A stretch of 63,330 nucleotides of DNA from positions 12,473 through 75,802 of the forward strand of contig JBKBRC010000006.1 in NCBI GenBank assembly GCA_046292345.1, written 5' to 3'. Shown here one piece after another: positions 53-63,254 of this stretch (its first letter is position 1; each line of letters starts with the position of its first letter). The stretch is from Rubricoccaceae bacterium. Its GTDB lineage: Bacteria > Bacteroidota > Rhodothermia > Rhodothermales > Rubricoccaceae. The notes beneath the pieces were generated by a model that was not told the origin of the DNA, ran no database searches, and saw nothing but the letters and a program-made list of their open reading frames with translations. Both the position numbers and the translations under genes were made by a program.

Positions 53-121
53 CTCTCGTCGCAGACCCGTCTCGTCGCAGACCCGTCTCGTCGCAGACCC
101 GTCTCGTCGCAGACCCGTCTC
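53..121. repeat. 16-bp tandem repeat GTCTCGTCGCAGACCC, about 4.3 copies
   Basis: Read directly: copies at 53-68 (1 mismatch), 69-84, 85-100 and 101-116, plus a partial copy. It lies about 95 nt upstream of the DUF192 start. Confidence 0.95.
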
Positions 122-214
122 AGCACAGAGGGGGGATTGAAACCCGGCGAAGACCTCGCGGACGCACGGCGCCGAGAGGACGGTTAGCTTTTGACGTCCC
201 CCTCCCACCAGGTC

Positions 215-709
215 ATGCGCTTCGTCGCCCTCGCGCTGCTGCTCGCCGCCCCCGGTCTCGCCGCCTGCGAGCGCGAGCCCCCACCGCCCGAGCCGCCCGT
301 CTCGATCCCGTTCGAGATTCACGGCGAGCTGGACGTGCTCCGCGGCGACAGCGTCCTCACGACCGTTGCCATCGAGATTGCCGACACGGACTCGACGCGC
401 CAGCGCGGCCTCATGCAGCGCTACGAGATCCCCGAGCGCACGGGCATGCTGTTCATCTTTCCGTACGCGCAGCAGCAGGCCTTCTACATGGCCAACACGC
501 CCCGCTCGCTCGACATCATGTACTTCGGGCCGGACTCGGCGCTCGTCAACGTGGCCGCCAACACGCGCCCGTTCGACGTGAGCACGGTCGTCTCCGAGGG
601 CCCGGCGCAGTTCGTGCTCGAGATGCCGGCCGGGTTCGCACGGCGACACGGCCTCGTGCCCGGCGACCGCATCCGCTGGACCGACCGCCGCTTCGCGGGC
701 GGACCGTGA
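215..709 (+). CDS. DUF192 family lipoprotein
   Basis: Lipoprotein-type signal MRFVALALLLAAPGLAAC. DUF192-like motifs DTDSTRQRGLMQR, GMLFIF, FYMANT and LDIMYF. The ATG at 215 is preferred over the TTG at 191. Confidence 0.75.
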   Translation: MRFVALALLLAAPGLAACEREPPPPEPPVSIPFEIHGELDVLRGDSVLTTVAIEIADTDSTRQRGLMQRYEIPERTGMLFIFPYAQQQAFYMANTPRSLDIMYFGPDSALVNVAANTRPFDVSTVVSEGPAQFVLEMPAGFARRHGLVPGDRIRWTDRRFAGGP

Positions 710-853
710 CGGGCGCCCCGCCCCGGCTGCGCCGCATGAAGAAAGAGCGGACGCGCCCGCGCGACGCAACAGACCGTATCACGAGACGTTCTGGCGCCAT
801 CGATGCGTCCCGTCGGCCCCCCCGCCCCCCTCGGTGGCCGACCGACCACGATC

Positions 854-885
854 CCGCCGGCCCCGTAAGGCCGGCGGTTTTTTTT
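854..885 (+). terminator. Rho-independent terminator (9-bp GC stem plus T8)
   Basis: CCGCCGGCC (854-862), loop CCGTAA, GGCCGGCGG (869-877), then TTTTTTTT (878-885). It lies downstream of the DUF192 gene, and the T-run overlaps the TAA stop of the convergent ABC gene. Confidence 0.75.
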
Positions 886-1546
886 ATGCTCCCGTGGTGC
901 GGTCGCCCGCTGCCGTGCCGGCCTCCACACCTCCGCCGAGCAGGACCCGCCGCGTGCACAGGGCGGCCTCGTCAGGCTCGTTGGTGGCCACGACGACCAC
1001 GCGCCGGTCATCGGCCACCAGCGCGGCCACGAGCGCGCGGCCGGCCGCGTCGAGCGTGGCCGACGGCTCGTCGAGCAGGAGCACGGGCGGGTCGTGGAGC
1101 AGAGCCGCCGCGAGGCGGAGCCGCTGCCGCATCCCCGTCGAGTAGGTCCGGAGCAGGTCGTCGCCGCGCCCGGCCAGGCCCACGCGCTCGAGCAGTGCCG
1201 CGGTGCGCGCCCGGGCCGCGCGCGCGCCGAGGCCATAGCTCTGGGCCAGGAAGTGCAGGTTCTCGGCGCCCGAGAGCGCGTCGTAGTGCTGGAGGTACGG
1301 CGCCACGAAGCCGACCTGCCGCGGAAGGCGGTGCGGCGGCTCGGCACGCCCGCCGCGCTCGAGGAAGACGCGCCCGGTGTCGGGGCCGCGCACGCCCGCA
1401 AGCACGCGCAGCAGGCTGGACTTGCCGCTGCCGTTGGCTCCCGTGATCGCCAGCGGCTCTCCCGCCTCGGCCGCGAACGAGAGGTCGCGCACCAGCGCCC
1501 GCGTGCCGTAGCGGAGGGCGACGTTTTCGGCGACGAGGCGTAGCAT
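884..1546 (-). CDS. ABC transporter ATP-binding protein with no permease gene adjacent
   Basis: Walker A GANGSGKSS, ABC signature YSTGMRQRL and Walker B LLLDEP. Start taken at the internal ATG (MLRLVAENV), although the ORF extends to 1630. Confidence 0.85.
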   Translation of the reverse strand: MLRLVAENVALRYGTRALVRDLSFAAEAGEPLAITGANGSGKSSLLRVLAGVRGPDTGRVFLERGGRAEPPHRLPRQVGFVAPYLQHYDALSGAENLHFLAQSYGLGARAARARTAALLERVGLAGRGDDLLRTYSTGMRQRLRLAAALLHDPPVLLLDEPSATLDAAGRALVAALVADDRRVVVVATNEPDEAALCTRRVLLGGGVEAGTAAGDRTTGA

Positions 1547-1600
1547 AAGGGCAAGGCGGGAGGCGCGGCGGCATGATACCGCCCCGTTCGCCGGACCGCC

Positions 1601-1636
1601 CCAGCCCGGCACCCCTGCCCAGCCCGGCACCCCTGC
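1601..1636. repeat. 18-bp tandem duplication CCAGCCCGGCACCCCTGC x2
   Basis: Two perfect copies (1601-1618 and 1619-1636) in the divergent spacer, ending 12 nt before the ATG at 1648. Confidence 0.9.
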
Positions 1637-2174: not shown

Positions 2175-3014
2175 ATGTCGCGCTCGCCGGCCCTCCTGCT
2201 CGCCCTGCTCGCCACCGCTGCGCTGGCAGCGGCACTCGGGTGGGTGGCGCGGGGCGCCCTCCCGTCCGCCCCGCCCGGGCCAGACCCGCCGGCGCACGCC
2301 CCCGACGTCTCCGCGAGCGCGCTCGACTCGCTCGAGGCCCGCCTGGACCGCCTCCGCGGCCGCCTCGTGCGCGTCGAGCCGCCGGCCCCGGAGGATGAGG
2401 CCGCCCTCCGCCGGCCGCGCACGCCCCCGTACACGCTCCACCTCGCCCGCGCCGACTCGCTCGGCGTGCCGCCCGTCCGCGACGAAGCCGACGTCGAGGC
2501 GCACGTGCAGGCCGGGCGCCTGGTGCCCCTCGGCGACACCGAGCGCTACGTCGTGCGCGTGCTCGAGCACTCGAAGCCGTTCGCCACGCCCCGCACACGC
2601 GCCATGCTCGACGAGATCGGCCGGCGCTTCCGCGACTCGCTCGCCGCACGCGGCCTGCCGCCCTACCGGCTCGTCGTCACGTCCGGCCTGCGCACGGCCG
2701 ACCTGCAGGCCGACCTGACGCGCACCAACCGCAACGCCATTGCGGGCACGTCCTCGCACGAGTACGGCACGAGCATCGACCTGGTCTACACCCGCTACGC
2801 GTTCCTTCACGACCCGGCCGACGTGCCCCCGGGCGGCGACGCCGTGCAGCGGCTCTACCTCCGCAGCGTCGCCGACATGGGCGCGGCGCACTGGCAGCAC
2901 CTGTACGGCGTCCTCGCGCGCGTGCTCCGGCAGATGCAGCGCGAGGGGCGCGTGCTCGTGCTGCTCGAGGCCGAGCAGCCCGTCTTCCACCTCACGCTCG
3001 ACTACGGCTCGTGA
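2175..3014 (+). CDS. Peptidase M15 / VanY-like (DUF5715-like) protein
   Basis: N-terminal TM or signal segment. TSGLRTADLQ and GTSSHEYGTSIDLVY resemble the SxHxxGxAxD zinc-site motif of LD-/DD-carboxypeptidases. Confidence 0.5.
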   Translation: MSRSPALLLALLATAALAAALGWVARGALPSAPPGPDPPAHAPDVSASALDSLEARLDRLRGRLVRVEPPAPEDEAALRRPRTPPYTLHLARADSLGVPPVRDEADVEAHVQAGRLVPLGDTERYVVRVLEHSKPFATPRTRAMLDEIGRRFRDSLAARGLPPYRLVVTSGLRTADLQADLTRTNRNAIAGTSSHEYGTSIDLVYTRYAFLHDPADVPPGGDAVQRLYLRSVADMGAAHWQHLYGVLARVLRQMQREGRVLVLLEAEQPVFHLTLDYGS

Positions 3015-3055
3015 CGCCGGCCCACGGCGCCGGCCCATGGCGCCGGCCCATGGCG
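3015..3055. repeat. 13-bp tandem repeat CGCCGGCCCA(C/T)GG x3
   Basis: Starts at the first base after the TGA stop (3012-3014). Copies at 3015-3027, 3028-3040 and 3041-3053. Confidence 0.9.
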
Positions 3056-10281: not shown

Positions 10282-11241
10282 TCAGCGGGAGCGATCGCGG
10301 CGGCGAGGCGGCTCGCGGCGGTCGCGCGGGGCATCGCGCTCGCCGCGGCGGGCGCTGCGCTCGTTGCTGCGCGCATCGCCACTGCCGACACGCACCAGGC
10401 GGCCGTGCGGGGTGTCTACCAGGACGCCCTCGAGGCGCACGCGCGCGCCCTCGCGCAGCTCGATCCCGAGACGGCGGGCGTCGCGCTCGTCGAGCACGAC
10501 CTGCGTGCCGTCGCGCAGCAGTACGCCCGTGACGTCACCCCGTCCGTCCTCGAGCACGTGTTCGATGCGGCCGTCCACGCGCGCAGTCATGGCCGCCTCG
10601 CCCCGCCGGTCGCGCTCGCTGCGGACGGCACGCTCGCTGCGGGCGTCGCGCTCGCTGCGGACGGCACGCTCGCTGCGGGCATCGCGCTCGCTGCGGACGG
10701 CACGCTCGCTGCGGGCGTCGCGCTCGCTGCGGGCGTCGCGCTCGCTGCGGCGGTCACGGCGGGGGGGCTCCGCCTCGAGCCGGTCGCCGGTGCGGACGTT
10801 CTCGATCACCTGCGCTTGCATCACGCGGCCCGTGCGCAGCCCTACCACGCGGATCTCGTCGCCGGGGCTGGCCAGGCGCTCGGCCGCGCCGCGCTGGTGC
10901 GAGGGCACCTCGACCTGCGTGCCATCGCGCAGGATGAACCCGCGCACCTCGCCGCGCCCATCGAGTAGGTAGGCCTGCACGCGTCCGCGCACGGGGCGGT
11001 CATCGCCGGCCTCTCGGCCGAACAGTCGCGCGACGGCACGGCCGACGCGCGAGTCGGGCGCGTCCAGCGCCGCGTGCGCGGCCCGCAGGTCACCGGCGCG
11101 CGCGCCGTGCCGGTGGGGAGGGCCATCGGTGTGCGCCACGCGGACAGTCGGCGTGGCCGCGTCGGACGACGACGCCGTCCGGTAGTTGTGGTACTGAAAC
11201 CCGAGCCAGAAGGCCAGGGCGACGAGCAGAAAGCGTTTCAT
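10282..11241 (-). CDS. Hypothetical exported protein with two homologous domains joined by a charged SERDAR/SERAVR repeat linker
   Basis: Signal or TM segment MKRFLLVALAFWLGF. The domain LLDGRGEVRGFILRDGTQV is repeated as LEDGRGDVTGVLLRDGTQV. An 18-bp in-frame repeat array lies between the two copies. Confidence 0.6.
   Translation of the reverse strand: MKRFLLVALAFWLGFQYHNYRTASSSDAATPTVRVAHTDGPPHRHGARAGDLRAAHAALDAPDSRVGRAVARLFGREAGDDRPVRGRVQAYLLDGRGEVRGFILRDGTQVEVPSHQRGAAERLASPGDEIRVVGLRTGRVMQAQVIENVRTGDRLEAEPPRRDRRSERDARSERDARSERAVRSERDARSERAVRSERDARSERAVRSERDRRGEAAMTARVDGRIEHVLEDGRGDVTGVLLRDGTQVVLDERDARRLGIELREGARVRLEGVLVDTPHGRLVRVGSGDARSNERSARRGERDAPRDRREPPRRRDRSR
10611..10754. repeat. 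In-frame 18-bp (36-bp super-unit) tandem repeat x8 inside a CDS
   Basis: CGCGCTCGCTGCGGACGGCA / CGCTCGCTGCGGGCGT units read directly. They encode alternating SERDAR and SERAVR hexapeptides. Confidence 0.9.
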
Positions 11242-11439: not shown

Positions 11440-12045
11440 CTAGGTAGCCTCCGCGCCGCGCGCCGCGAACGCTGCCGCGAGGCGCACCGTCCATGCGCGC
11501 ACCGCCTCGAAGTCAGCCGGGCGCGGCCCGCCGTCGATCTCGCAGACCGGGAGGGCGCGGTGCGCGCCGCAGGCTGCGAGCAGCGCGTCGAGGCGGTACG
11601 CGGCCGTGAGGAAGTACGGGTTGTAGTCTCGGTCGCCGAGGCCGACGACGCCGTAGGCCACGTGGGCGAGCGGCGGGCCGAGCTCCTCGAGCGCCTCGGC
11701 GAAGGCGACCGCGTTGTCCGGGAACGTGCCGTTGGACCAGGTACACGTCACGGCCACGAGTTGCCGGTAGTCGGCGAGCATCTCGGGCACGGCGTCGGCC
11801 ATGTCGAGCACGTGCGCGGCGAAGCCGAGCTCGCCGAGCGTCTCGGCCACGGCGTCGGCCACGAGCTCGGAGTTGCCGGTCTGCGTGCCCACGAGCACGA
11901 GCACGTCCGGGTGCGCGGCCTCGAGGTCGAGGCCGCGCACCGCGTCGGTGTCGCGCAGACCGCCGTGCGGTCCGCCGTGCGGTCCGCCGTGCGGGTTGTC
12001 GCGCGGGTCGTCGCGCGGGTCGTCGCGCGGGTCGTCTGCTGCCAT
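11440..12045 (-). CDS. Flavodoxin-domain protein with a repeat-encoded N-terminal extension
   Basis: FMN-binding loop LVLVGTQTGNSE and VVGLGDRDY. The N-terminus is MAADDPRDDPRDDPRDNPHGGPHGGPHGG. The start lies 8 nt downstream of the metalloprotease stop. Confidence 0.75.
   Translation of the reverse strand: MAADDPRDDPRDDPRDNPHGGPHGGPHGGLRDTDAVRGLDLEAAHPDVLVLVGTQTGNSELVADAVAETLGELGFAAHVLDMADAVPEMLADYRQLVAVTCTWSNGTFPDNAVAFAEALEELGPPLAHVAYGVVGLGDRDYNPYFLTAAYRLDALLAACGAHRALPVCEIDGGPRPADFEAVRAWTVRLAAAFAARGAEAT
11959..12036. repeat. Two abutting in-frame 12-bp tandem repeats (3 + 3.5 copies)
   Basis: (A/T)CCGCCGTGCGG x3 at 11959-11994, then GT(T/C)GTCGCGCGG x3 plus a partial copy at 11995-12036. 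They encode (HGGP)3 and (DDPR)3 directly after the start codon. Confidence 0.92.
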
Positions 12046-18460: not shown

Positions 18461-18580
18461 GCGCCGCTCATAGCAGCCCCGCTCATAGCAGCCCCGCTCA
18501 TAGCAGCCCCGCTCATAGCAGCCCCGCTCATAGCAGCCCCGCTCATAGCAGCCCCGCTCATAGCAGCCCCGCTCATAGCA
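18461..18580. repeat. 15-bp tandem repeat GCCCCGCTCATAGCA x8
   Basis: Eight head-to-tail copies (the first has 1 mismatch). The last copy (18566-18580) contains the TGA stop and last two codons of the DUF3078 gene. Confidence 0.97.
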
Positions 18581-19463
18581 GCGTCATCGTCAGCCCGACC
18601 GAGAGCACCTCGCGCAGCTGGACGCGCGCGCTCACGTCGCGGTCGTAGAGCGCGACCGTGTCCAGGTTCACCGAGAGCAGACCGTTGACCCGGAGCGCGA
18701 GCGTGTTCTCCCAGACGAGGTCTGGGGCGGCCTGCGCCACCTGCGTGAACGCCTGAAACGCGGCCAGCCGCGAGCGCAGGCGTACGCCCTGCGCGATCCG
18801 CCGGTCGAGCGCCGCCTCGGCGTCGAGCCCCGCCTCGAGGCGGACGAGTTGGCCGGGCGCGTTGCCGTGCACCGGCCGCAGGCGCTCGACCGCGACGACG
18901 GTCTGCTTGAGGCCGACTCCCGCGCGCCCCACGAAGTCCCCGCCCGGACGCACCGTCGCCCCCACGGACTGCGTCAGCACGGCCGGGGCGGCGAAGCTCG
19001 AGACCCGCAGCCGCTCCCCCGGCACGACGGGCAGCGTCGGGTAGGCTGCCGGCGAGGGGTTGTAGTCGAAGCCGGGCGCGAACTGCGACTGCGCCGTGAC
19101 GCGCACCGAGGGCCGCAGCGCACGGCCGGTCTCGTGCTCGAGCGCGAAGCCGTAGCGGAAGCGGTCGTCGGCTTTGCGGAACGCGAGCGTGTCCTGCTGC
19201 AGCAGCCCAAACGAGGCGCGGAACTCGTGAGCCTGCCGCAGCCTCCCGTTGACACGCGCGAAGTCTGCCTCGCCGGCGAGCGCGACGGCCAGCGCGCTCG
19301 CGCCACCTTCCTGCCAGTTGGCAAACGCGGTCTGGCTGCCCGAGAGTCGTACGATGGCGCGGCTGAACCAGCCGTCGTCGGTTCCGAGCGTGTCGCCGGG
19401 GAGGCGCTGGGCGCTGGCCGAGGCCGCGCAGCCGAGCGCGGCGAGCACAAGGAGGACGCGCAT
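18573..19463 (-). CDS. DUF3078-like outer-membrane protein
   Basis: Signal peptide MRVLLVLAALGCAASASAQ, the motif FANWQEGGASAL and a beta-rich sequence. Start taken at the internal ATG. Confidence 0.65.
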   Translation of the reverse strand: MRVLLVLAALGCAASASAQRLPGDTLGTDDGWFSRAIVRLSGSQTAFANWQEGGASALAVALAGEADFARVNGRLRQAHEFRASFGLLQQDTLAFRKADDRFRYGFALEHETGRALRPSVRVTAQSQFAPGFDYNPSPAAYPTLPVVPGERLRVSSFAAPAVLTQSVGATVRPGGDFVGRAGVGLKQTVVAVERLRPVHGNAPGQLVRLEAGLDAEAALDRRIAQGVRLRSRLAAFQAFTQVAQAAPDLVWENTLALRVNGLLSVNLDTVALYDRDVSARVQLREVLSVGLTMTLL

Positions 19464-24309: not shown

Positions 24310-24455
24310 GCGGCAGCGCGGCGCGCGCGGTCAGCAAGGGCCGTTTGGCCACCGACCGCCACCTTGCGGCTCCTCTCAGCCCACCGCGAACCGGGACAGC
24401 CTGGGGAGTACGCTCAGTAGGTGCTCGCGCAGGGCCACTGTACGGAAAAGCTGAT

Positions 24456-24519
24456 CAGTGAGACGAAAACTGGTCGGTGAAACGAATCGGTGAAACGAAA
24501 ACTGGTCGGTGAAACGCAT
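24456..24519. repeat. 32-bp tandem duplication built from C(A/G)GTGA(G/A)ACG sub-repeats
   Basis: 24456-24487 and 24488-24519 are near-identical. The region is AT-richer than its surroundings and lies in the convergent dnaE/deaD spacer. Confidence 0.85.
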
Positions 24520-24520
24520 C

Positions 24521-24552
24521 GCGGGCGGCAGAGCCGAAGCCCCGCCGCCCGC
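24521..24552. other. GC hairpin (9-bp stem, 14-nt loop) in a convergent intergenic region
   Basis: GCGGGCGGC (24521-24529) pairs with GCCGCCCGC (24544-24552). There is no U-tract, so terminator function is uncertain. Confidence 0.4.
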
Positions 24553-31050: not shown

Positions 31051-31055
31051 CCTGC

Positions 31056-31107
31056 GTGCGACCCCGACGTGCGACCCCGACGTGCGACCCCGACGTGCGA
31101 CCCCGAC
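31056..31107. repeat. 13-bp tandem repeat GTGCGACCCCGAC x4
   Basis: Four perfect copies, beginning 6 nt after the TGA stop at 31048-31050. Confidence 0.95.
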
Positions 31108-32559: not shown

Positions 32560-33370
32560 GGTCCCGAAGGCGTCCGAGGCGCGCGGTGCCGAGGCGCGCG
32601 GTGCCGAGGCGCGCGGTGCCGAGGCGCGCGGTGCCGAGGTCCGCGGTGCCGAGGTCCGCCCCGTAGCGGCGCTCGGCAGCACCGAGCGCGAGACGCTGCG
32701 CCGCCTGATGGAGGCGCACTACGAGGGCGTCTGCCCGGAGGTTTTTGCGCGCGACCTGGACGCCAAGGACGCCGTCGTGCTGCTGCGCGACGACGCCGGC
32801 GCGCTGCGCGGCTTCTCGACGGTCGCGCGCGAGCGCGTGCGCGCGGGCGAGCTCGAGGCGCTCGTGTTCTACTCGGGCGACACGGTTGTCGAGGCCGCGC
32901 ACCGGCACACGGCAGCCCTGCCGCGCGCCTGGAGCCGCTACGTCTTCGCCGAGGCCCGCCGCATGCCCGACGTGCCGACCTACTGGTTCCTGATCTGCTC
33001 GGGGTACAAGACCTACCGGTTCCTACCGACGTTCTACCGCCGCTTCCTGCCGGGTCCGGGCCAGCCCGAGCGGGAGGACGAGCGCCGCCTGCTCGACGCC
33101 GTCGCTCGCGCGCGCTTCGGCACACGCTACAACGCGCGCACCGGTGTCATCCGGCTCGAGCACCCGACGCCCCTCCGCCCCGGCGTGGCCGACCTGACGG
33201 CGCACCGCCTCGCCGATCCGCACGTCGCCTTCTTTGCCGCGCGCAACCCCGGGCACGCGCGCGGCGACGAGTTGGCCTGCCTGTGCCGCATCCATCCCGA
33301 GAACCTCACTCCCGCCGGGGCGCGCATGGTCGGCCCGGACCTCGCTCGCCCGCTCCCCGCCCCGCCATGA
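32537..33370 (+). CDS. Hypothetical protein (possible acyltransferase fold) with an N-terminal EARGA repeat
   Basis: High-GC3 ORF. The ATG at 32537 overlaps the upstream gene by 23 nt. A later start at MEAHYEG (around 32708) cannot be excluded. No family recognised. Confidence 0.5.
   Translation: MPRSPRTEVPKASEARGAEARGAEARGAEARGAEVRGAEVRPVAALGSTERETLRRLMEAHYEGVCPEVFARDLDAKDAVVLLRDDAGALRGFSTVARERVRAGELEALVFYSGDTVVEAAHRHTAALPRAWSRYVFAEARRMPDVPTYWFLICSGYKTYRFLPTFYRRFLPGPGQPEREDERRLLDAVARARFGTRYNARTGVIRLEHPTPLRPGVADLTAHRLADPHVAFFAARNPGHARGDELACLCRIHPENLTPAGARMVGPDLARPLPAPP
32576..32660. repeat. 15-bp tandem repeat GAGG(C/T)(G/C)CGCGGTGCC, about 5.7 copies
   Basis: Four perfect copies plus two variant copies. 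In frame with the 32537 ORF, encoding (EARGA)4(EVRGA)2. Confidence 0.93.
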
Positions 33371-34359: not shown

Positions 34360-35993
34360 GGGCAGCCCGCCTCGCCTACCGCCTCTGGGCGCTCGCGGCC
34401 CTGGCGGACGCGCGCCGCTTCGAGCGGGCGCTGCACGCCCCCGAGGCGGCGCAGGCGGCCGTGCTGCGCGAGGTCGTGCGCGCCTGCCGCGGCACGGCCT
34501 ACGCCCGGCACGCCGGCCTGGACGGCGTGCGGACGCTCGCCGACCTCGGGGCGCTGCCCCAGGCCACACCCGAGGCGCTCGCGCCCTGGATCGCGCGCAT
34601 CGCCGGCGGCGAGCCGCACGTGCTCACGCGCGCGCCCGTCCGCCTCCTCGAGCCCACCGGCGGCTCAACGGGCGGGCGGCGCCTGGTGCCCTTCACGGCG
34701 CCGCTCCAGCGGCAGTTCCGCCGCGCCGTGAGCGCCTGGATCGTGGACCTGCTGCGGCGCGACGCGCGCCTCGGGCACGGCCCGGCCTACTGGTCGGTCA
34801 GCCCGGCCACGGGACCGCCCGAGCGCGCGCCCGGCGGCCTGCCCGTCGGCTTCGCCGATGACGGCGCCTACCTCTCGCCCATCGCGGCGCGTCTGGCGCG
34901 GGCCGTGCTCGCCGTTCCTGGCGCGCTCCGGCTCGTCGCCGAGCCCGAGGCGTTCCGCTACGCGACGCTGCGGCTGCTCGTCGGGCGCGGAGACCTGGCG
35001 CTCGTCTCGGTCTGGAACCCGACGTTCTTCGAGCTCCTGCTCGCATCGCTGGAGGCGCACGCCGAGGCGCTCGCGCGCGACATCCGCGAGGGCACGCTCC
35101 TGGCCGCCCTCCCGGCCGAAGCGCACCGGGCCGTCCGTCCGTTCCTGCGCCCCGACCCGGCCCGCGCCCGCGCGCTCGAGGCGGCCCTCGCGCTCGCCGA
35201 CGGCCCCGCGCGCTACGCTCGTCTCTGGCCCCGCCTGCGCCTCGTGAGCGCCTGGGCCGACGCGCACGCGGCCAGGCCGGCGCGCACCCTCGCGGCGCGC
35301 CTCGCGCACGCCGCCTTCCAGCCGAAGGGCCTCCTCGCCACCGAAGGCGTCGTCTCCGTGCCACGCGCCGGGCGCACGGGCGCGGCGCTGGCCGTGACGA
35401 GCCACGTGATCGAGCTCGTCCCGCCCGGCGGCGGCGAGGCGGTGCCGCTCGCCGAGGCCCGTGTGGGCGAGCGCTACGCCGTACTGCTCACGACCGCCGG
35501 CGGGCTCGTCCGCTACCGCCTTGGCGACCTGGTAGACGTCGTCGGACGCGAGGGGCGGACGCCGCTCGTCCGCTTTGCCGGGCGTGAGGGGCTCGTCTCG
35601 GACCGCGTCGGCGAGAAGCTGCACGAGGCGCACGTCCGCCAGGCCCTTGAGGCAGCTTGCGCCGGCCTCGAGGCGCCCTTCCTCATGCTCGCCTGCGACG
35701 ACGCCGCCGCCCCTCCGGCATATGTGCTCTTCGCCGAGACCATGGCCGACGACGAGGCGCTCCGCGAAGCCGCCGCCGCGCTCGACCGTGCGCTCGGCGC
35801 CAACGTGCACTACGCCTACGCGCGGCGCCTGGGGCAGCTCGGCCCGCTCGGCGCGTTCCGCGTCACCGGCGACGGCCACGCGGCGTACGTCCGCGCCTGC
35901 GCTGCGCAGGGACAGCGCCTGGGCGACGTCAAGCCGTCGGCGCTGCACCGCGCCGGCGACTGGACGTCCCGGCTGCCAGGACAGCGGCTGTAG
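34356..35993 (+). CDS. GH3-family (acyl-acid amido synthetase-like) adenylating enzyme
   Basis: N-terminal GH3-like pattern (..VLREVV..GTAYAR..; EPTGGSTGGRRLVPFT corresponds to the TSGTTxGxxKxIP motif) and a size of 545 aa. GTGA overlap with the desaturase stop. Confidence 0.65.
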   Translation: MRAARLAYRLWALAALADARRFERALHAPEAAQAAVLREVVRACRGTAYARHAGLDGVRTLADLGALPQATPEALAPWIARIAGGEPHVLTRAPVRLLEPTGGSTGGRRLVPFTAPLQRQFRRAVSAWIVDLLRRDARLGHGPAYWSVSPATGPPERAPGGLPVGFADDGAYLSPIAARLARAVLAVPGALRLVAEPEAFRYATLRLLVGRGDLALVSVWNPTFFELLLASLEAHAEALARDIREGTLLAALPAEAHRAVRPFLRPDPARARALEAALALADGPARYARLWPRLRLVSAWADAHAARPARTLAARLAHAAFQPKGLLATEGVVSVPRAGRTGAALAVTSHVIELVPPGGGEAVPLAEARVGERYAVLLTTAGGLVRYRLGDLVDVVGREGRTPLVRFAGREGLVSDRVGEKLHEAHVRQALEAACAGLEAPFLMLACDDAAAPPAYVLFAETMADDEALREAAAALDRALGANVHYAYARRLGQLGPLGAFRVTGDGHAAYVRACAAQGQRLGDVKPSALHRAGDWTSRLPGQRL

Positions 35994-36020
35994 CCGCCGG
36001 CTGTAGCCGCCGGTGTAGCC
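35985..36020. repeat. 13-bp tandem repeat CGGCTGTAGCCGC, about 2.8 copies
   Basis: The first copy contains the TAG stop (35991-35993) of the GH3 gene. Confidence 0.88.
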
Positions 36021-36944: not shown

Positions 36945-37793
36945 TCAGTCGAGGTCGTCGAGGATGCGACGGATGCGCTCGCGCTCCTCCTCCGACGCAG
37001 CGACGCGGTCGGGCTCGTCCTGCGCGCCCGTCACGAGCGAGCGCAGGTCGAACGTCTCAGGAGGCATCGCCGACGGTGCCCCGGAGGGCATGCGAGCGGA
37101 CGCGTCGCCCGCCGCAGGCGCATCCTCGGAGGCCGCTCCGGTAGCAGCAGCTCCGGTAGCAGCAGCTCCGGTAGCAGCAGCCCCGGCGCTGGAAGCCTCG
37201 GCGCTGGAAGCCTCGGCGCTGGAAGCCTCGGCGCTGGCGGCAGCTTCGGCAACCTCGGCGTCTTCGGGCTCAGGGCGCCTGGCGAGTTGCGCGGGCACGC
37301 GCCCCTCGGGCTCGCTGCTGCTGACGAGGCGGATAAAGCCAACTGGGTCGTCGCCCTGGAACTGCGCCAGGATCTCGAGCTCCGACATCAGGAACGCCCG
37401 CAGGCGCGCCGCGACCTCGTTCTGCCGCCCTGTCAGGCGGGCCAGATCCTGCCGAACGCCATAGCGCTCCTGCTCGGCGTCTTGCAGGATGCGCTGCGCG
37501 CGCAACTCGGCCTCCTCCACAATCAGGCGCGCCTTCTGCTCAGCGGCCGCCTGCGCACGCTGCGCCGACTCGCGCGACGCCTCGAGCGCCTCCTGCAGCG
37601 CCAACTCGACGCGCTCGTAGTGCTTGAGCTTGCCCTCTATCTCGCGCACCCGCTCCTCGGCGAGGCGCTTCTCCTCGGCCAGCTGCTCCCACTGGTCGGC
37701 GATCTGCTTGAGAAAGCCTTCTACTTCGTCTGTGTCGTAGCCGCGGAAGCTGCGCGTGAACTGCTGCCGGCGGATGGCGAGGGGATTGAGCAT
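36945..37793 (-). CDS. divIVA: DivIVA domain-containing protein
   Basis: N-terminal LNPLAIRRQQFTRSFRGYDTDEVEGFL followed by coiled coil. The C-terminal region contains (AEASS)3 and (GAAAT)3 repeats. Confidence 0.85.
   Translation of the reverse strand: MLNPLAIRRQQFTRSFRGYDTDEVEGFLKQIADQWEQLAEEKRLAEERVREIEGKLKHYERVELALQEALEASRESAQRAQAAAEQKARLIVEEAELRAQRILQDAEQERYGVRQDLARLTGRQNEVAARLRAFLMSELEILAQFQGDDPVGFIRLVSSSEPEGRVPAQLARRPEPEDAEVAEAAASAEASSAEASSAEASSAGAAATGAAATGAAATGAASEDAPAAGDASARMPSGAPSAMPPETFDLRSLVTGAQDEPDRVAASEEERERIRRILDDLD
37136..37240. repeat. Two abutting in-frame 15-bp tandem repeats (3 + 4 copies)
   Basis: CTCCGGTAGCAGCAG x3 at 37136-37180, then C(C/T)(C/T)CGGCGCTGGAAG x3 plus a variant at 37181-37240. 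Confidence 0.92.
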
Positions 37794-39249: not shown

Positions 39250-39305
39250 GCCTCCGGCACGAGCCTCTCCGGCACGAGTCTCTCCGGCACGAGCCTCTCC
39301 GGACG
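39250..39305. repeat. 15-bp tandem repeat CTCTCCGGCACGAG(C/T), about 3.7 copies
   Basis: Read directly, in the 680-bp non-coding spacer upstream of the first GH31 gene. Confidence 0.88.
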
Positions 39306-39387
39306 GCGCGTCATCGCATCCCTGACGGGCCTGTCCGTCCGCCCCGCCCGCTGGCCCGCCCGGTCCCACAGCGCAGCACCGGCCGGG

Positions 39388-39483
39388 GGGCCTGCCCCGA
39401 CTGCCGGAGGGCCTGCCCCGACTGCCGGAGGGCCTGCCCCGACTGCCGGAGGGCCTGCCCCGACTGCCGGAGGGCCTGCCCCT
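39388..39483. repeat. 21-bp tandem repeat GGGCCTGCCCCGACTGCCGGA, about 4.5 copies
   Basis: Perfect copies at 39388-39408, 39409-39429, 39430-39450 and 39451-39471, plus a partial copy. Confidence 0.95.
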
Positions 39484-44684: not shown

Positions 44685-44711
44685 CGCCGGCCGGCCGGCT
44701 CACGCGTCGGG

Positions 44712-44783
44712 CGCGTCCTCGCGCGCGTCCTAGGGCGCGTCCTAGGGCGCGTCCTAGGGCGCGTCCTAGGGCGCGTCCTCGCG
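44712..44783. repeat. 12-bp tandem repeat CGCGTCCTAGGG x4, flanked by two CGCGTCCTCGCG variants
   Basis: Copies at 44724, 44736, 44748 and 44760. The copy at 44760-44771 carries the real TAG stop (44766-44768, minus strand). The other three carry the same codon in frame downstream. Confidence 0.93.
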
Positions 44784-45074
44784 CGCGCCTGCGCGGTCGT
44801 CCGGCGGCCGCGCGTAGCGCCGCGAGGCCCGGACGCGCTGCGTGCGCCGGATCATCTCGTCGTATGCCTGTTGCGATAGCCAGTCGGCGCCGTCGGTGTA
44901 GGCCGGGCGCACGTAGTAGGTCCCCGCACGATGAATCGGCAGGCCGAAGGCGAGGCAGCGCGCGCCCTCGGGCGGCGCCTCCGGGCTCCGCGCGCGCCGC
45001 CACTTGACGCGTCGCCACGGCCGCTCGGCGAGGGCGGCCCAGAACGCGTCGTCGTGCTCGGGCCGGACGCTCAT
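44766..45074 (-). CDS. Hypothetical protein (102 aa, Arg/Trp-rich)
   Basis: About 92% GC3 by hand count (8 non-GC third positions in 102 codons). Its ATG overlaps the stop of a 42-codon upstream ORF (ATGA). No family recognised. Confidence 0.5.
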   Translation of the reverse strand: MSVRPEHDDAFWAALAERPWRRVKWRRARSPEAPPEGARCLAFGLPIHRAGTYYVRPAYTDGADWLSQQAYDEMIRRTQRVRASRRYARPPDDRAGAREDAP

Positions 45075-45199: not shown

Positions 45200-45246
45200 C
45201 GCAAGGGGACGAGTGTGCCGGCGAACGTCGGGGAGAGGCGAACCCC

Positions 45247-45272: not shown

Positions 45273-45291
45273 CCGGCAGCCTTCACTAACG

Positions 45292-45401
45292 GAAACAATC
45301 CGTCTGGTAGTAAGAAACAATCCGTCTGGTAGTAAGAAACAATCCGTCTGGTAGTAAGAAACAACCAGTCTGGTAGTAAGAAACAACCAGTCTGGTAGGA
45401 G
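45292..45401. repeat. 22-bp AT-rich tandem repeat x5 (iteron-like)
   Basis: GAAACAATCCGTCTGGTAGTAA x3, then GAAACAACCAGTCTGGTAGTAA, then GAAACAACCAGTCTGGTAGGAG. The unit has 9/22 G+C, in an otherwise very GC-rich window. Confidence 0.97.
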
Positions 45402-45486
45402 GAAAAGCGTGCCGTGGAGCCCGATGCGGCCGCGGTCCGCGACGAGCTTCTGGTGCCCGGGGCGCGTCCTGCGCGCCACGACGGCC

Positions 45487-45798
45487 TCACGGCCCGAGTC
45501 GGCGACGTCGCCCGCGGAAGCGCTCGTAAATGTCTCGTAGATGTTTCAAATGTCTCGTAGATGTTTCGCAGATGATGTACAGGCTCAACTCGATGTACAG
45601 GCTCAACTCGAGCGCCGTGATGGCTCCATTGTCGTCTTCATCTGCCTGCCGTCTCCCCCCGACGGCGCCGGCGAAGCGGCGCGAGACGAGATGCACATCG
45701 GCGGCGGTGCAGCGCAGGTTGGCCGAGCGGCCGTTGTAGTCTGGAACGCCCACAAAGCGGCCCACGCCGCGGTCGAACTGCGGCAGCGCGGGCCGCAT
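45487..45798 (-). CDS. Doubtful ORF or gene remnant (103 aa)
   Basis: The first ~46 codons have high GC3 (MRPALPQFDRGVGRFVGVPDYNGRSANLRCTAADVHLVSRR...). The rest runs through the AT-rich duplications and is probably not genuine coding sequence. Confidence 0.25.
   Translation of the reverse strand: MRPALPQFDRGVGRFVGVPDYNGRSANLRCTAADVHLVSRRFAGAVGGRRQADEDDNGAITALELSLYIELSLYIICETSTRHLKHLRDIYERFRGRRRRLGP
45528..45609. repeat. Two adjacent AT-rich duplications (20 bp x2, then 18 bp x2)
   Basis: AAATGTCTCGTAGATGTTTC at 45528-45547 and 45548-45567. GATGTACAGGCTCAACTC at 45574-45591 and 45592-45609. Confidence 0.95.
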
Positions 45799-45857
45799 GG
45801 CCTCGGCCTGCGTGAGCCGGAGCGTGTGCGGCCCGGCCTCCCCGGCGCGGCGTGCCC

Positions 45858-45903
45858 GCCTGCGTACGCTCAGGCTGCCTGCGTACGCTCAGGCTGCCTG
45901 CAG
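45858..45903. repeat. 19-bp tandem repeat GCCTGCGTACGCTCAGGCT x2 plus a partial copy
   Basis: The second copy (45877-45895) contains the TGA stop (45889-45891) of pntB. Confidence 0.92.
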
Positions 45904-47331
45904 CGTCTTCAGCTCAGCCGCGATCGCCTTGAGCGAGTCCTTGGCGTCGCCGAAGAGCATCTGCGTGTTCGGCTTGTAGAAGAGCGGGTTCTCGATGCCC
46001 GCGTAGCCGGCCCGCATGGAGCGTTTGAGCACGATTGTCTGCTGCGCCTCGTCCACGTTGAGCACGGGCATGCCGTAGATGGGGCTCTGCGGATCCTCTC
46101 GCGCGCCCGGGTTGACGACGTCGTTGGCGCCGACGACGAGCACGACGTCCACCTGCGGGAACTCCGGGTTGATCTCGTCCATCTCGATGAGCTGCTCGTA
46201 GGGCACGTTGGCCTCGGCGAGCAGGACGTTCATATGCCCCGGCATGCGCCCCGCAACGGGATGGATCGCGTAGCTGACCTCGACGCCCTCGCGCGCGAGC
46301 AGGTCGGCCAGTTCGCGGACCTCGTGCTGCGCCTGGGCCACGGCGAGGCCATAGCCGGGCACGATCACGACCCGCTGCGCGTAGGCCATGAGCACGGCCG
46401 CGTCGTCGGGCGTCGTGGCGCGCACCGGCGGCGCGTCGGCCGCGGCCGCGCTGGCGGTTGCGGTGCCGTCCGTCCCGAAGCCGCCCAGGAGCACGTTGGC
46501 GAGTGAGCGGTTCATCGCCTCGCACATGATGCGCGTCAGGATCATGCCGCTCGCGCCGACGAGCGCGCCCGAGATCACGAGCGCGTAGTTGCCGAGCACG
46601 AAGCCCGCCGCCGCCGCCGCCAGGCCGGAGTAGGCGTTCAGGAGCGCGACCACGACCGGCATGTCCGCCCCGCCGATGGGCAGCACGAGCAGCACGCCGA
46701 GCACGAGCGCCGAGAGCGCGAGCGCGGCGAGCGCGTACACGGCCGGCTCGGGGGCGAGCGGCAGGTGCGGCCCGGCGAGCGTCAGCATGCCGAGCGCGCC
46801 AAGCGCCATCAGGCCCATCGCGACTGAGAACAGGCGCAGGCCGAGAAAGCCGCCGCTCGTGATGGACCCGCGCAGCTTGCCGAACGCCACGAACGAGCCT
46901 GTCAGCGTGACGCTGCCGATCAGCACCGAGAGCCCGATCACGAGGCTGTCGACCGGGGGAATGACCCGCGAGGCCACGCCGGGGCCGACGTAGCGCAGCA
47001 CCTCGGCCGCCGCCACGAGGGCCGAGGCCGCGCCGCCGAAGCCGTTGAAGGCCGCCACGAGTTCGGGCATCTGCGTCATGGGCGTCCGCCGCGCCAGCAG
47101 CACGCCGATGGCACCGCCGGCGAGCAGCCCGGCCAGCACCTCGAGCGGGTTGAGCACGCGCGCCGAGAGCAGCGCCGCCCCGACGGCGATGAGCATCCCG
47201 GCCGCGGCGAGGCGGTTGCCGGCGCGGGCCGTGCGCGGCGAGGCGAGCCGCTTGAGCCCGACGATAAACAGGGACGCCGCGAGCAAGTACGCGAGCGTCG
47301 TCAGCGTAGCGCCGAGAGGCGAGGGGCTCAT
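45889..47331 (-). CDS. pntB: NAD(P) transhydrogenase subunit beta
   Basis: Multi-TM N-terminal half, then the dIII NADP(H) domain: VIVPGYGLAVAQAQH, AIHPVAGRMPGHMNVLLAEA and VVLVVGANDVVNP. Start taken at the ATG at 47331 (MSPSPLGATL). Confidence 0.92.
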   Translation of the reverse strand: MSPSPLGATLTTLAYLLAASLFIVGLKRLASPRTARAGNRLAAAGMLIAVGAALLSARVLNPLEVLAGLLAGGAIGVLLARRTPMTQMPELVAAFNGFGGAASALVAAAEVLRYVGPGVASRVIPPVDSLVIGLSVLIGSVTLTGSFVAFGKLRGSITSGGFLGLRLFSVAMGLMALGALGMLTLAGPHLPLAPEPAVYALAALALSALVLGVLLVLPIGGADMPVVVALLNAYSGLAAAAAGFVLGNYALVISGALVGASGMILTRIMCEAMNRSLANVLLGGFGTDGTATASAAAADAPPVRATTPDDAAVLMAYAQRVVIVPGYGLAVAQAQHEVRELADLLAREGVEVSYAIHPVAGRMPGHMNVLLAEANVPYEQLIEMDEINPEFPQVDVVLVVGANDVVNPGAREDPQSPIYGMPVLNVDEAQQTIVLKRSMRAGYAGIENPLFYKPNTQMLFGDAKDSLKAIAAELKTLQAA

Positions 47332-47363
47332 GGGCGTTCGGGCGAGGGGCTCATGGGCGTTCG
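47318..47363. repeat. 23-bp tandem duplication GGCGAGGGGCTCATGGGCGTTCG x2
   Basis: Two perfect copies (47318-47340 and 47341-47363). One carries the pntB ATG (47329-47331) and the other the pntAB TGA (47351-47353). Confidence 0.95.
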
Positions 47364-47650
47364 GGCGCACCGTCGCGGGCGCGCGGCTTGAACATCTCGA
47401 GCATGCGGTCGGTCACGAGGAAGCCGCCGACGACGTTGATCGTCGCGAGCACGAGCGCGAGCACGCCGATCCACTTGCCCCACGGCGCCCCGACGGTCCC
47501 GGCCACGACGAGCGCCCCGACGATGGTGATACCGCTGATCGCATTGGAGCCGGACATGAGCGGCGTGTGCAGCGTGGCCGGGACTTTCGAGATCACCTCG
47601 ATGCCGACAAAGGCCGCGAGCACGAATACGACGAAGAGCGAGATGGACAC
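47351..47650 (-). CDS. pntAB: NAD(P) transhydrogenase subunit alpha part 2 (membrane)
   Basis: 99 aa with 3-4 TM segments. Contains VISKVPATLHTPLMSGSNAISGI. GTG start. Confidence 0.88.
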   Translation of the reverse strand: MSISLFVVFVLAAFVGIEVISKVPATLHTPLMSGSNAISGITIVGALVVAGTVGAPWGKWIGVLALVLATINVVGGFLVTDRMLEMFKPRARDGAPERP

Positions 47651-47675: not shown

Positions 47676-47723
47676 GGCTAGAGCGCCGGCTAGAGCGCCG
47701 GCTAGAGTGCCGGCTCGAGCAGG
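47676..47723. repeat. 12-bp tandem repeat GGCTAGAG(C/T)GCC x3 plus a degenerate fourth copy
   Basis: The third copy (47700-47711) contains the TAG stop (47702-47704) of pntAA. The two other copies place in-frame TAGs downstream. Confidence 0.92.
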
Positions 47724-51487: not shown

Positions 51488-52183
51488 TCAGGCAGCGGCG
51501 CGCTCGGTGAGCACCTCCACTTCCCCGCGGACGGTCCCGCCGGAGGCCTCGGCCGCGCGCATGCAGAAGAACGTCCACATGGCCTGCTGCGCCGCCTGCG
51601 CCAGCGGCAGCTTGTCGTAGACGAGGTCTACGAGCGCGTCGCGGCTGCGCGCGTACGACTCGATCGTGAACACGAGCGCGCCCGAGCCCTCCTCGGTCGT
51701 GGCCGCGAACCGGATCTGCCCCGCCTCCATGTGCCCCTCGAGCGTGGCGAAAGCGAAGGCGGCCGGGCCGGCTTCGAGCACGCGGACGGGCCCGTCCCAC
51801 GGCGAGTTGATGCGGACGACGAACTCGTCGCCGGCGGCAAGGCCGCCCGGCGCGCCGCGCGTCTTCTCGAACACGGCCAGCTCGGCCGGCACGAACGCCT
51901 GGATGTCGGCCCTGACGGCCTGCATGAGGGCCTCCGGCGCCAGGCGCGGCGCGTCGGCCACGACGCGGTAGCGGCGGTGGAAGTAGGGGCCGCGGCCATC
52001 GCGGACGTGCTGGACCGGCGCGCGGCCGGGCTCGTCGGGCGCCTCCTCGGGCACGCGCACGAACGGCACGTCGCGGCGGTGGGAGCGGACGCGGTAGCCC
52101 CATCGCGCCCAGAGCCACGCCGCGGCGGCCGCCCCGGCGGCGGCGGTCCAGGGCAGAAGGGTGACAAGAGGGCGGGCCGGCAT
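51488..52183 (-). CDS. DUF1990 (UPF0548) family protein (paralog), with an N-terminal TM segment
   Basis: FAFATLEGHMEAGQIRFAA core. The start-codon region is duplicated (MPPPSR-MPARP), so an alternative in-frame ATG exists at 52201. Confidence 0.5.
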   Translation of the reverse strand: MPARPLVTLLPWTAAAGAAAAAWLWARWGYRVRSHRRDVPFVRVPEEAPDEPGRAPVQHVRDGRGPYFHRRYRVVADAPRLAPEALMQAVRADIQAFVPAELAVFEKTRGAPGGLAAGDEFVVRINSPWDGPVRVLEAGPAAFAFATLEGHMEAGQIRFAATTEEGSGALVFTIESYARSRDALVDLVYDKLPLAQAAQQAMWTFFCMRAAEASGGTVRGEVEVLTERAAA

Positions 52184-52216
52184 ACGAGACGGCGGCGGCA
52201 TACGAGACGGCGGGAG
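52181..52216. repeat. 18-bp tandem duplication CATACGAGACGGCGG(C/G)(G/A)G x2
   Basis: Both copies contain CAT (ATG on the minus strand) in the same frame. The array lies between the serA stop (52228) and the DUF1990 gene. Confidence 0.9.
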
Positions 52217-58123: not shown

Positions 58124-58149
58124 CGGCCGCACCGGGCGGCCGCACCGGG
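58124..58149. repeat. 13-bp tandem duplication CGGCCGCACCGGG x2
   Basis: Two perfect copies in the erpA-like/sufB divergent spacer. A 6-3-6 inverted repeat GCAGAC-TGG-GTCTGC lies at 58205-58219. Confidence 0.88.
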
Positions 58150-62088: not shown

Positions 62089-62162
62089 CCTGCACGGCGC
62101 TCCCTCCTTTTGCACGAAGGGCAGGCCGCGCAGCCCAACCTTCTCGCCCTCCTCCCACGCCC

Positions 62163-62534
62163 ATGTCCGATTCCGTCATCGAGCGCGACTTCCTCATCGA
62201 GGGCCGGGAACCGGCGGACCTGAGCCCGCTCGAGGAGCAACTCGTTGCCGTCATGCAGTCGGTCTACGACCCTGAGCTGCCCCTTCCTATCTGGGACCTC
62301 GGCCTGATCTACGGCTGGACGATCGCGCCGGACGGAGGCGGCGCAGACGTGACGGTGCGCATGACGCTCACGGCGCCCAACTGCCCTGCCGCAGAGACGC
62401 TCCCGGCCGAGGTCGAGCAGGGCGTCAACGCCGTCGAGGGCGTGGCGCGCGCGCACGTCGAGATCGTGTTCACGCCGCCGTTCAGCCTCGAGATGCTGAC
62501 TGAAGAGGCCCGCCTCACGCTCGGGCTCGCCTGA
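62163..62534 (+). CDS. sufT: SufT/DUF59 (MIP18-family) Fe-S assembly protein
   Basis: VYDPELPLPIWDLGLIY and MTLTAPNCPAAE (conserved Cys). Start taken at MSDSVIE. Confidence 0.82.
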   Translation: MSDSVIERDFLIEGREPADLSPLEEQLVAVMQSVYDPELPLPIWDLGLIYGWTIAPDGGGADVTVRMTLTAPNCPAAETLPAEVEQGVNAVEGVARAHVEIVFTPPFSLEMLTEEARLTLGLA

Positions 62535-62711
62535 ACCCCGGGGGCCGACCCGCCGCGGCGCGTCCCAGTGTGTGGACGCCTGTGTATGGCCCGCCGAGGC
62601 GGCACGCTCGGGTTACACGCTGGCCGGGTGAGGCGGCTTCTCGCGATGTGGCACGGCCGCTGGAGAGCGCGGGCGTACACCGGACGCGCCGGTGCGCCAC
62701 CACTCCACCCG

Positions 62712-63149
62712 ATGCCGCTCACCCCACCGCTTTCCACGTCGCCCCTTCATCTGGCCGAGCGCGCCCTGCGCAAGCCTTCGTCTGCCGTATGGCTGCGAAG
62801 CGTGCGCGTGCGCACAGCCCATTTCGACGAGGCGCTTGCCTTCTACACGTCGGCCATCGGGCTGACCCTCGGCGCGCTCGACGCGCAGGCCGGCACGAGC
62901 CGCCTGCGCGCGCGCCTGCTCGACGCCGAGGGCAACGCCGTCTTCGAACTGCTCGAGACCGACGCTCCTCCGGCGACCCTCGCACACGAGCTCGCCTTCG
63001 GCATGCCGCTCCGCTCCTGGCAGCTGCTGCGCGCCCGCCTGGACAATGCCGGCATCGCCTACCGCGCGGCCGGTACCACGCTCTACCTGCACGACGTGGA
63101 CGGCACGCCGCTGCGCCTCGAATCCATCGCCGACGGCCACGCGGGTTGA
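62712..63149 (+). CDS. VOC (glyoxalase/bleomycin-resistance) family protein
   Basis: A beta-alpha-beta-beta-beta module can be read from the sequence: VRVRTAHFDEALAFYTSAIGL...FELLE...HELAFG...LHDVDGTPLRL. The start is uncertain (ATG at 62712 chosen). Confidence 0.55.
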   Translation: MPLTPPLSTSPLHLAERALRKPSSAVWLRSVRVRTAHFDEALAFYTSAIGLTLGALDAQAGTSRLRARLLDAEGNAVFELLETDAPPATLAHELAFGMPLRSWQLLRARLDNAGIAYRAAGTTLYLHDVDGTPLRLESIADGHAG

Positions 63150-63169
63150 TCGCGGAGGCGGGCCAATCG

Positions 63170-63254
63170 CGGGAGGCCCTTCCGCGGAGGCAGCCCTTCC
63201 GCGGAGGCAGCCCTTCCGCGGAGGCAGCCCTTCCGCGGAGGCAGCCCTTCCGCA
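63170..63254. repeat. 17-bp tandem repeat GAGGCAGCCCTTCCGCG, about 5 copies
   Basis: Copies at 63187, 63204, 63221 and 63238, plus a degenerate leading copy. The array begins about 23 nt after the TGA stop at 63147-63149. Confidence 0.93.

Follow-up and report, generated by a model that had tools for sequence, protein, structure and literature searches.

The question raised by this stretch of DNA from a Rubricoccaceae bacterium is why short tandem arrays, each built from a unit of its own, should lie on or beside the ends of so many genes. The window, by which we mean the entire 63,330-nt stretch of contig JBKBRC010000006.1 that was analysed, has a G+C content of 73-74%, and the results on its arrays apply to these 63 kb. 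An initial annotation, made from the letters alone, listed 23 arrays and attributed them to active local duplication biased towards gene ends, with purifying selection on the reading frame. Our analysis indicates that the arrays are ordinary in kind, being products of the variable-number tandem repeat (VNTR) or microhomology-mediated tandem duplication (MTD) type, and unusual in density alone. They are probably young, minisatellite-type (VNTR-like) tandem duplications of microhomology origin, with a placement that reflects a gene-blind process followed by selection and with a raised birth rate.

Tandem Repeats Finder (TRF), run with a period of at least 10, a match of at least 90% and a score of at least 60, detected 24 arrays in the window, 11 of which were perfect (100% identical). 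Unit lengths ranged from 12 to 36 bp and copy numbers from 2.0 to 7.9. Every position in the original list was recovered to within a few bases, and two entries (11959 and 37136) each resolved into two adjacent arrays with different units (11960 and 11991; 37135 and 37179). Fifty third-order Markov simulations of the window yielded on average 0.1 arrays per 63 kb and at most 2. Two properties that identify bacterial VNTRs or minisatellites were observed, i.e. high-identity head-to-tail copies beyond chance (24 vs 0.1 simulated), and a location outside the interior of coding sequences (CDSs) for 19 of the 24 arrays, with all five internal ones in frame. These data confirm that the arrays exist and greatly exceed the number expected by chance.

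No 10-mer was common to any two arrays on either strand or in any rotation, in agreement with the earlier statement that each array has its own unit and that no dispersed family of repetitive extragenic palindromic (REP) elements or miniature inverted-repeat transposable elements (MITEs) is involved. The 12-mers taken from array units recurred in the window only as scattered GC-rich chance matches. A dispersed family of the REP, bacterial interspersed mosaic element, MITE or mycobacterial interspersed repetitive unit (MIRU) type was rejected on these grounds, the units being unique and without shared 10-mers. A clustered regularly interspaced short palindromic repeat (CRISPR) array was rejected because the units abut directly, without spacers. 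Phase-variable contingency loci built from simple sequence repeats were also rejected; the units are 12-36 bp long and the CDS-internal arrays are all multiples of 3, which makes frame toggling impossible.

All seven arrays that had been listed as containing a stop or start codon do so when compared with Pfam-supported genes. Three further arrays (3015, 31055 and 63176) start after a stop as described, at distances of 1, 5 and 27 nt. CDS-internal arrays number five, not four, and all five have units that are multiples of 3. Two generalizations went too far: arrays occupy 14 of the 50 inter-gene spacers, not almost every gene boundary, and those outside CDSs are divided between units that are not multiples of 3 (10 of 19) and units that are (9 of 19).

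Duplication of a segment [i, i+p) of a sequence S yields S[:i+p] + S[i:i+p] + S[i+p:], and a CDS is broken only if the segment lies wholly inside it. If the segment spans a stop, the protein still ends at the first copy, and if it spans a start, the protein still begins at the last copy; both kinds of duplication are protein-neutral for this reason. For the placement test, arrays were collapsed to single units and all positions were enumerated for the observed periods. Random duplications would fall inside CDSs in 87.8% of cases, compared with 5 of the 24 arrays observed (p = 1e-13). These five were all in frame, as were all 14 internal arrays of the control set, which consisted of 80 other pntB loci totalling 1.39 Mb; the 34 comparable arrays found in these control genomes comprised the 14 internal ones, 17 that were intergenic and 3 on gene boundaries. 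The internal arrays of the window occupy low-complexity tails or linkers, namely the N-terminal tail of a flavodoxin, the linker of DivIVA and a protein with RSERDA repeats. The median spacer is 82 nt at present and ~75 nt after the arrays are collapsed, and because spacers are this short, surviving arrays sit on or beside terminal codons. On statistical grounds, array placement is explained by selection acting on a gene-blind process.

The initial annotation had gone further and proposed that duplication is physically directed to CDS termini, for which transcription termination or ribosome/terminator structures could provide a means. A terminal codon was touched by 7 of the 19 non-internal arrays (37%), exceeding the 22.7% expected of neutral duplications, although this excess was not significant (p = 0.17). 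Several other arrays begin 1-27 nt past a stop, and stops were touched by 6 arrays and starts by 2, the array at 47318 entering both counts. The hairpin potential of the array footprints was also slightly above that of random spacer (p = 0.016); a hairpin-driven origin was rejected, as this effect is too weak. However, when placement was conditioned on collapsed spacer length, in the 17 cases where the window includes the entire spacer of the array, 7 terminal-codon contacts were observed and 7.3 were expected from random placement (P(X>=7) = 0.70). Convergent (3'-3') spacers were not favoured beyond their target size, and no bias among convergent, divergent and co-directional types was detected over the 50 spacers (p = 0.35). 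Nine arrays lie 50-320 nt away from the nearest called gene end, three of the five CDS-internal arrays are at least 190 nt from a gene end, and the control genomes have the same layout at low density. The repeats of Burkholderia pseudomallei, a classic repeat-rich bacterium, are likewise mostly intergenic and in frame if coding, so that a layout of this kind has already been described (PMC1853098). We conclude that active local duplication and purifying selection on the frame both stand, that a terminus-targeting mechanism is not needed, and that physical targeting is very unlikely.

Relatives were used to compare the state of orthologous junctions. The 480-aa PntB was a singleton in the protein search, its next match having 77% identity, and the closest relatives are Rubricoccaceae, Rubrivirga and other Rhodothermales metagenome-assembled genomes (MAGs), at ~77% amino acid identity or less. 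In three relatives (L081, L082 and L083), synteny with the window extends over DUF1990-DUF1990-lumazine_bd-aminotransferase-pntAA-pntA2-pntB. A single plain ATGA overlap joins their pntAA to pntA2, whereas the window has TAG three times in a 12-bp array. At the pntA2/pntB junction, the single ATGA of locus L001 is duplicated at a 23-bp period in the window. PntB ends with ...LQAA* in the window and with ...LQAA*, ...LEAA* or ...LQTA* in relatives, i.e. at the same residue; the duplicated 19-mer of the window comes after this end, and the pntB 3' end of the relatives is unduplicated. The single-copy ancestral state was found at all three junctions compared (pntAA/pntA2, pntA2/pntB and the pntB 3' end), at which the arrays are evidently derived and the proteins apparently unchanged. 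Comparable repeats, at low density, were also observed at two of the relatives' loci. At 8245-8306 of L082, 32 nt past the aminotransferase stop, lies a 16 bp x 3.9 array that is perfect, and the pntA2-pntB spacer of Rubrivirga locus L005 (~9900-10000) contains a short CACTGAC(C/G)-like repeat in degenerate form.

The ends of the arrays bear on their origin. When array length is expressed as n x period + r, r was at least 4 nt in 18 of the 24 arrays, compared with 5.3% by chance (p = 1e-18), and r = 0 was found in 2 of 24 vs 46% by chance. Partial terminal units of this kind are what duplication between short direct repeats leaves behind, in agreement with the MTD model, in which arrays arise by microhomology-mediated tandem duplication and GC-rich arms are far more duplication-prone (Wei et al. 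2026, bioRxiv 10.64898/2026.02.28.708716). Full-copy counts fall roughly geometrically, with 9, 7, 4, 2, 1 and 1 arrays having 2 to 7 copies. Several arrays contain nested units (a 13-mer in the 32-mer at 24454; 18-bp halves in the 36-mer at 10609) or variant units (two variants at 45292; an A-B-B-B-B-A pattern at 44709), a history that fits stepwise slippage and argues against an artefact.

From these sequence signatures we infer how an array would originate. A single-copy segment of 12-36 bp, bordered by a few bases of microhomology, would be duplicated by slipped-strand or template-switch misalignment during replication, and ordinary slippage would afterwards gain or lose whole units, up to 8 copies. 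On the statistical evidence given above, the duplication process is blind to genes, with survival set by selection. A duplication wholly within a CDS causes a frameshift or an insertion and is lost unless its length is a multiple of 3 and the low-complexity segment that receives it is tolerant, and one in a spacer or across a stop or start is protein-neutral, since the first stop or last start still delimits the protein.

Array density was 0.379 arrays/kb in the window compared with 0.024/kb in the control set (~16x), and the control GC classes ranged from 0.011 to 0.031 arrays/kb, with none higher. The eight nearest relatives (Rubricoccaceae/Rhodothermales loci syntenic with the window, 160 kb) contained 3 arrays, where 61 would be expected at the window rate (p = 2e-22). 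Enrichment varied with the age of the arrays, being 30-fold for perfect arrays, 16-fold for those with a match of at least 90% and only 1.7-fold for those with a match below 90%. Microhomology pairs with arms of at least 6 nt numbered 23.8/kb in the window vs 15-22 in relatives, and those with arms of at least 8 nt numbered 3.3 vs 1.2-3.6. A greater microhomology substrate in the window was therefore rejected as the source of the excess, the pair density being about equal to that of relatives. Two control loci from actinobacterial MAGs (L050 and L043) had 0.19 arrays/kb, with 4 arrays in ~21 kb each, so that dense minisatellites may turn up sporadically in other high-GC lineages as well.

As the substrate is equal to that of relatives, a difference in retention is one of two remaining options. 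The mutation rate could be normal, with weak selection or strong drift allowing slightly deleterious spacer insertions to build up, and the inflation of the spacers, from 75 to 82 nt, is indeed only modest. However, long accumulation should have enriched degenerate arrays equally, which does not agree with the 1.7-fold and 30-fold values given above. In addition, the coding fraction is an ordinary 0.88, and no pseudogenes were seen among the window ORFs (open reading frames) with Pfam hits. We therefore regard such accumulation as unlikely. Because the excess is in perfect arrays and not in degenerate ones, high recent birth and turnover is favoured over slow accumulation under weak selection. 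This result suggests that tandem duplications are born and turned over at a raised rate specific to the lineage of the window.

Flap-endonuclease mutants (yeast rad27; the 5'-nuclease of Escherichia coli Pol I) produce duplications flanked by short direct repeats. The arrays resemble these in their size range of tens of bp and in their short flanking direct repeats, a likeness that serves as an analogy only. By this analogy, weakened flap-processing or single-strand exonuclease function would be one possible cause of the raised rate; loss of Rad27 raises MTD frequency (bioRxiv 10.64898/2026.02.28.708716). No flap-nuclease, exonuclease or mismatch-repair gene lies within the window. Tentatively, this uncultured lineage could be a natural tandem-duplication hypermutator, in which a heritable change in flap processing, an exonuclease or the replisome raises microhomology-mediated duplication 10- to 30-fold, a proposal that we find conceivable and still doubtful. 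If it were true, the genome would hold about a thousand or more young 12-36 bp minisatellites (0.38/kb extrapolated to a 4-Mb genome), and the pattern at gene ends would be what selection has left visible of a flood of duplications. The window codes for a family-B DNA polymerase (Pol II-like, 784 aa; 4112-6466) alongside DnaE (1165 aa; 20812-24309). DnaE has a normal domain order; replisome variants are one conceivable source of a higher duplication rate.

A high density of perfect arrays could also be produced by assembly or sequencing artefacts of a metagenomic contig, i.e. spurious tandem insertions or mis-resolved repeats. The sequence is from one 89-kb contig without a close relative in the collections searched; exact-protein look-ups with two candidate PntB starts gave no match, and the right-end ORF gave no relative in a metagenome scan. 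Many of the arrays are 100% identical, and their density is far off that of relatives. Artefacts would ignore coding sequence, yet CDS interiors are avoided to the extent given above and the internal arrays are all in frame. Moreover, the Pfam-supported ORFs are all intact, and the diverged or nested units in several arrays indicate an evolutionary history. The usual fault of assemblers is to collapse tandem repeats, not to create them, which also counts against this explanation. We consider an artefact extremely improbable.

Several observations weigh against young, microhomology-derived and blindly placed duplications with a raised birth rate. The ratio r/p exceeds 0.7 in 10 arrays, in which an r near the full period may be a decayed terminal copy rather than the original microhomology arm, and r is at least 4 in only 5 of the 9 two-copy arrays. 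Collapsed footprints fold slightly better than random spacer (mean z of -0.44 vs -0.07), and hairpins such as terminators may contribute. The excess of terminal-codon contacts is mild and non-significant, and with ~19 arrays there is room for a weak real end bias; a slight further bias, due to hairpins or terminators close to stop codons, may also exist. Genes were called with a home-made codon-bias caller and a Pfam check, and long spacers may conceal small genes. Finally, copy-number instability and genome-wide density are extrapolated from 63 kb only.

Known repeat systems share much with the arrays. The VNTRs of B. pseudomallei K96243 are also head-to-tail, with a few to about ten copies, mostly intergenic, clustered along the chromosome and mostly composed of multiples of three where they occur in coding regions (U'Ren et al. 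2007, PMC1853098). Their units are mostly 6-9 bp rather than 12-36 bp, and 36% of the B. pseudomallei arrays have a duplicate at another site of that genome (PMC1853098), whereas no unit is re-used elsewhere in the window. The window density of 0.38/kb is ~4-5x that of B. pseudomallei, for which we calculated ~0.08/kb (~609 arrays/7.25 Mb) from the published percentages, with detection criteria that differ from ours (PMC1853098). MTD products share with the arrays a partial terminal unit, a GC-rich context and a series from two-copy to multi-copy forms (bioRxiv 10.64898/2026.02.28.708716). MTD is described as universal and of low frequency, whereas the standing density of the window exceeds by an order of magnitude that of relatives whose microhomology supply is equal.

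Retention for function must also be considered, as some arrays could serve for ORF spacing or bridging in the manner of MIRUs, as operator-like or iteron-like sites, as backup in-frame stops or for phase-variable expression. MIRUs are tandem units at co-directional gene junctions, with a unit ORF that is coupled through a -4 nt overlap with the flanking gene (PMC12548453), and the arrays at 47318 and 18464 similarly retain an ATGA/GTGA overlap chain of -4 nt by way of a mini-ORF. This coupling is not seen in most arrays, and at these two it is expected from the duplication of a junction that already had an ATGA overlap. In addition, MIRUs are one dispersed, apparently mobile family, whereas the units of the window are local duplicated sequence of 12-36 bp and mutually unrelated. 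MIRU units, which Supply et al. are said to have described in 1997, reportedly measure roughly 40-100 bp. The array at 45292 (22 bp x 5) is of iteron-like size and lies in a lower-GC spacer, and three arrays contain tandem in-frame stops. On the other hand, no sequence is common to different arrays, their positions, unit sizes and strands are heterogeneous, and the orthologous junctions of relatives work without arrays. Geometry alone would preserve coupling in 2 of 3 possible period classes, and high identity indicates recent origin, not conservation. Retention for function is thus quite unlikely, and we return to gene-blind duplication sorted by selection as the preferred explanation.

So understood, the window is a clean worked example of how selection and short spacers imitate a 'targeted' mutational process: in a compact genome, the arrays that survive selection accumulate at gene ends. 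Young arrays are 16 to 30 times as numerous in the window as in syntenic relatives of equal GC and microhomology supply. If this density holds genome-wide and in reads, the lineage would be a natural system for finding the limits on microhomology-mediated duplication in bacteria and a rich source of VNTR markers. In practical terms, gene calls at operon junctions suffer from such arrays through mini-ORFs, displaced starts and spurious N-terminal extensions. The codon-bias caller placed the pntB start at GTG 47370, upstream of the true ATG 47331.

Tandem arrays of the window and their gene context (window coordinates; periods and copy numbers by TRF)
Position	Strand	Unit x copies, identity	Location	Further features
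54..121		16 bp x 4.2, 100%	intergenic, 94 nt upstream of DUF192 gene (215-709 +)	
1600..1636		18 bp x 2.1, 100%	divergent spacer, ABC ATPase (884-1546 -) / Cu/Zn superoxide dismutase (1648-2163 +)	
3015..3055		13 bp x 3.2	begins one base past TGA of DUF5715 gene (2175-3014 +)	collapsed footprint folds as a hairpin (z = -2.35)
10609..10750	-	36 bp x 3.9	in frame within hypothetical CDS 10282-11280	two 18-bp half-units per unit; encodes RSERDA/RSERAV repeats
11960..12036	-	12 bp x 2.9 (HGGP) + 12 bp x 3.8 (DDPR)	flavodoxin gene 11440-12045, N-terminal tail before Pfam domain (from residue 50)	abutting in-frame pair
18464..18582	-	15 bp x 7.9, 100%	highest-coordinate unit (copy nearest gene) supplies TGA stop of DUF3078 gene (18573-19463)	ATGA in every unit, DUF3078 TGA within an ATGA; ATG frame is (MSGAA)x8 plus 17 codons, ending in GTGA overlap with next gene (16163-18406)
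24454..24521		32 bp x 2.1	between convergent dnaE (20812-24309 +) and deaD (24574-26283 -)	nested 13-bp duplication
31055..31107		13 bp x 4.1, 100%	from 4-5 nt past DUF2911 stop to 18 nt short of RidA/L-PSP start	occupies most of its 75-nt spacer
32574..32659		15 bp x 5.4-5.7	begins 15 nt past stop of CDS 31516-32559	
35985..36020		13 bp x 2.8	includes TAG of GH3-family gene (34356-35993 +); ends 11 nt short of stop of convergent PNP gene	palindromic unit
37135..37237	-	15 bp x 3.5 (AAATG) + 15 bp x 3.9 (AEASS)	low-complexity C-terminal linker of DivIVA (36945-37793)	abutting in-frame pair
39252..39302		15 bp x 3.4	~650-nt spacer upstream of GH31 gene	begins 11 nt past TAG of possible small ORF (39047-39241 +)
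39382..39482		21 bp x 4.8		
44709..44789	-	12 bp x 6.6	in frame with 102-aa ORF 44766-45074	in-frame TAG in four inner units, the first being the present stop; ancestral TGA at 44700-44702
45292..45405		22 bp x 5.2	lower-GC spacer 45075-45888	AT-richer unit, two sequence variants
45528..45611		20 bp x 2.0 + 18 bp x 2.1, both 100%	spacer 45075-45888	neighbouring two-copy arrays
45858..45901	-	19 bp x 2.3, 100%	includes pntB TGA	
47318..47367	-	23 bp x 2.2, 100%	duplicated ATGA overlap of pntA2 stop / pntB start	first ATG opens 8-codon ORF stopping on second ATGA
47676..47720	-	12 bp x 3.8	pntAA TAG, then two more in-frame TAG copies	
52178..52213	-	18 bp x 2.0, 100%	ATG of DUF1990 gene (51488-52183) and in-frame upstream copy	
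58124..58149		13 bp x 2.0, 100%	intergenic	TRF score 52
63176..63253		17 bp x 4.6, 100%	begins 27 nt past stop of CDS 62802-63149	partly palindromic unit

The gene content of the window is that of an ordinary chromosome and includes dnaE, the family-B DNA polymerase gene, deaD, sufBCD, pntAA/pntA2/pntB and divIVA, as well as two GH31 genes and the genes for a type IX secretion system (T9SS) plug protein and a DUF4953 zincin. Rfam searches at gathering thresholds returned tRNA-Met as the sole match in the window, and a non-coding RNA or riboswitch in the long spacers was rejected on this basis. ARAGORN reported a 'tRNA-???' with a two-base anticodon at 44140-44230 within a GH31 CDS, which is unsupported by Rfam and probably a false positive. 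No Pfam match was obtained for small ORFs 45487-45798, 44766-45074 and 38915-39241 of the two long spacers, and these regions were regarded as non-coding apart from the 102-aa ORF 44766-45074.

The array at 18464 makes up most of a small ORF at 18403-18582 (-), which reads (MSGAA)x8 and then VRGAAPGRSVRPGRVLR*. This ORF overlaps the stop of the upstream gene by ATGA and the start of the downstream gene by GTGA, and the two genes are thus bridged by -4 overlaps. At 39382..39482, every unit junction is a perfect 16-nt inverted complement of 39151-39166 (GCAGGCCCTCCGGCAG), a match with a roughly estimated chance of ~0.002 in 800 nt. The arm at 39151-39166 falls in the possible small ORF 39047-39241 (+), which is without a Pfam match. 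The two segments could form a long-range stem, or could be the remnant of an element bounded by terminal inverted repeats with one end amplified.

The 102-aa ORF ends ...AREDAP* at a TAG made within the expanded unit of the array at 44709, and its frame runs on as DAP*DAP*DAP*DAREDAPDA* to the older TGA. The array thus appears to have shortened the C-terminus of this ORF by a few residues. Between the pntB stop and the 102-aa ORF is a lower-GC stretch of ~800 nt (45075-45888) that holds three AT-richer arrays and a short signal-peptide-like ORF (MIALLVLSILSVALPAVV...). ORF 45487-45798 (-), which has no Pfam match, would include the 20-bp duplication, not a multiple of 3, near its 3' end. Three syntenic relatives carry a small ORF and/or topA at the position of 45075-45888.

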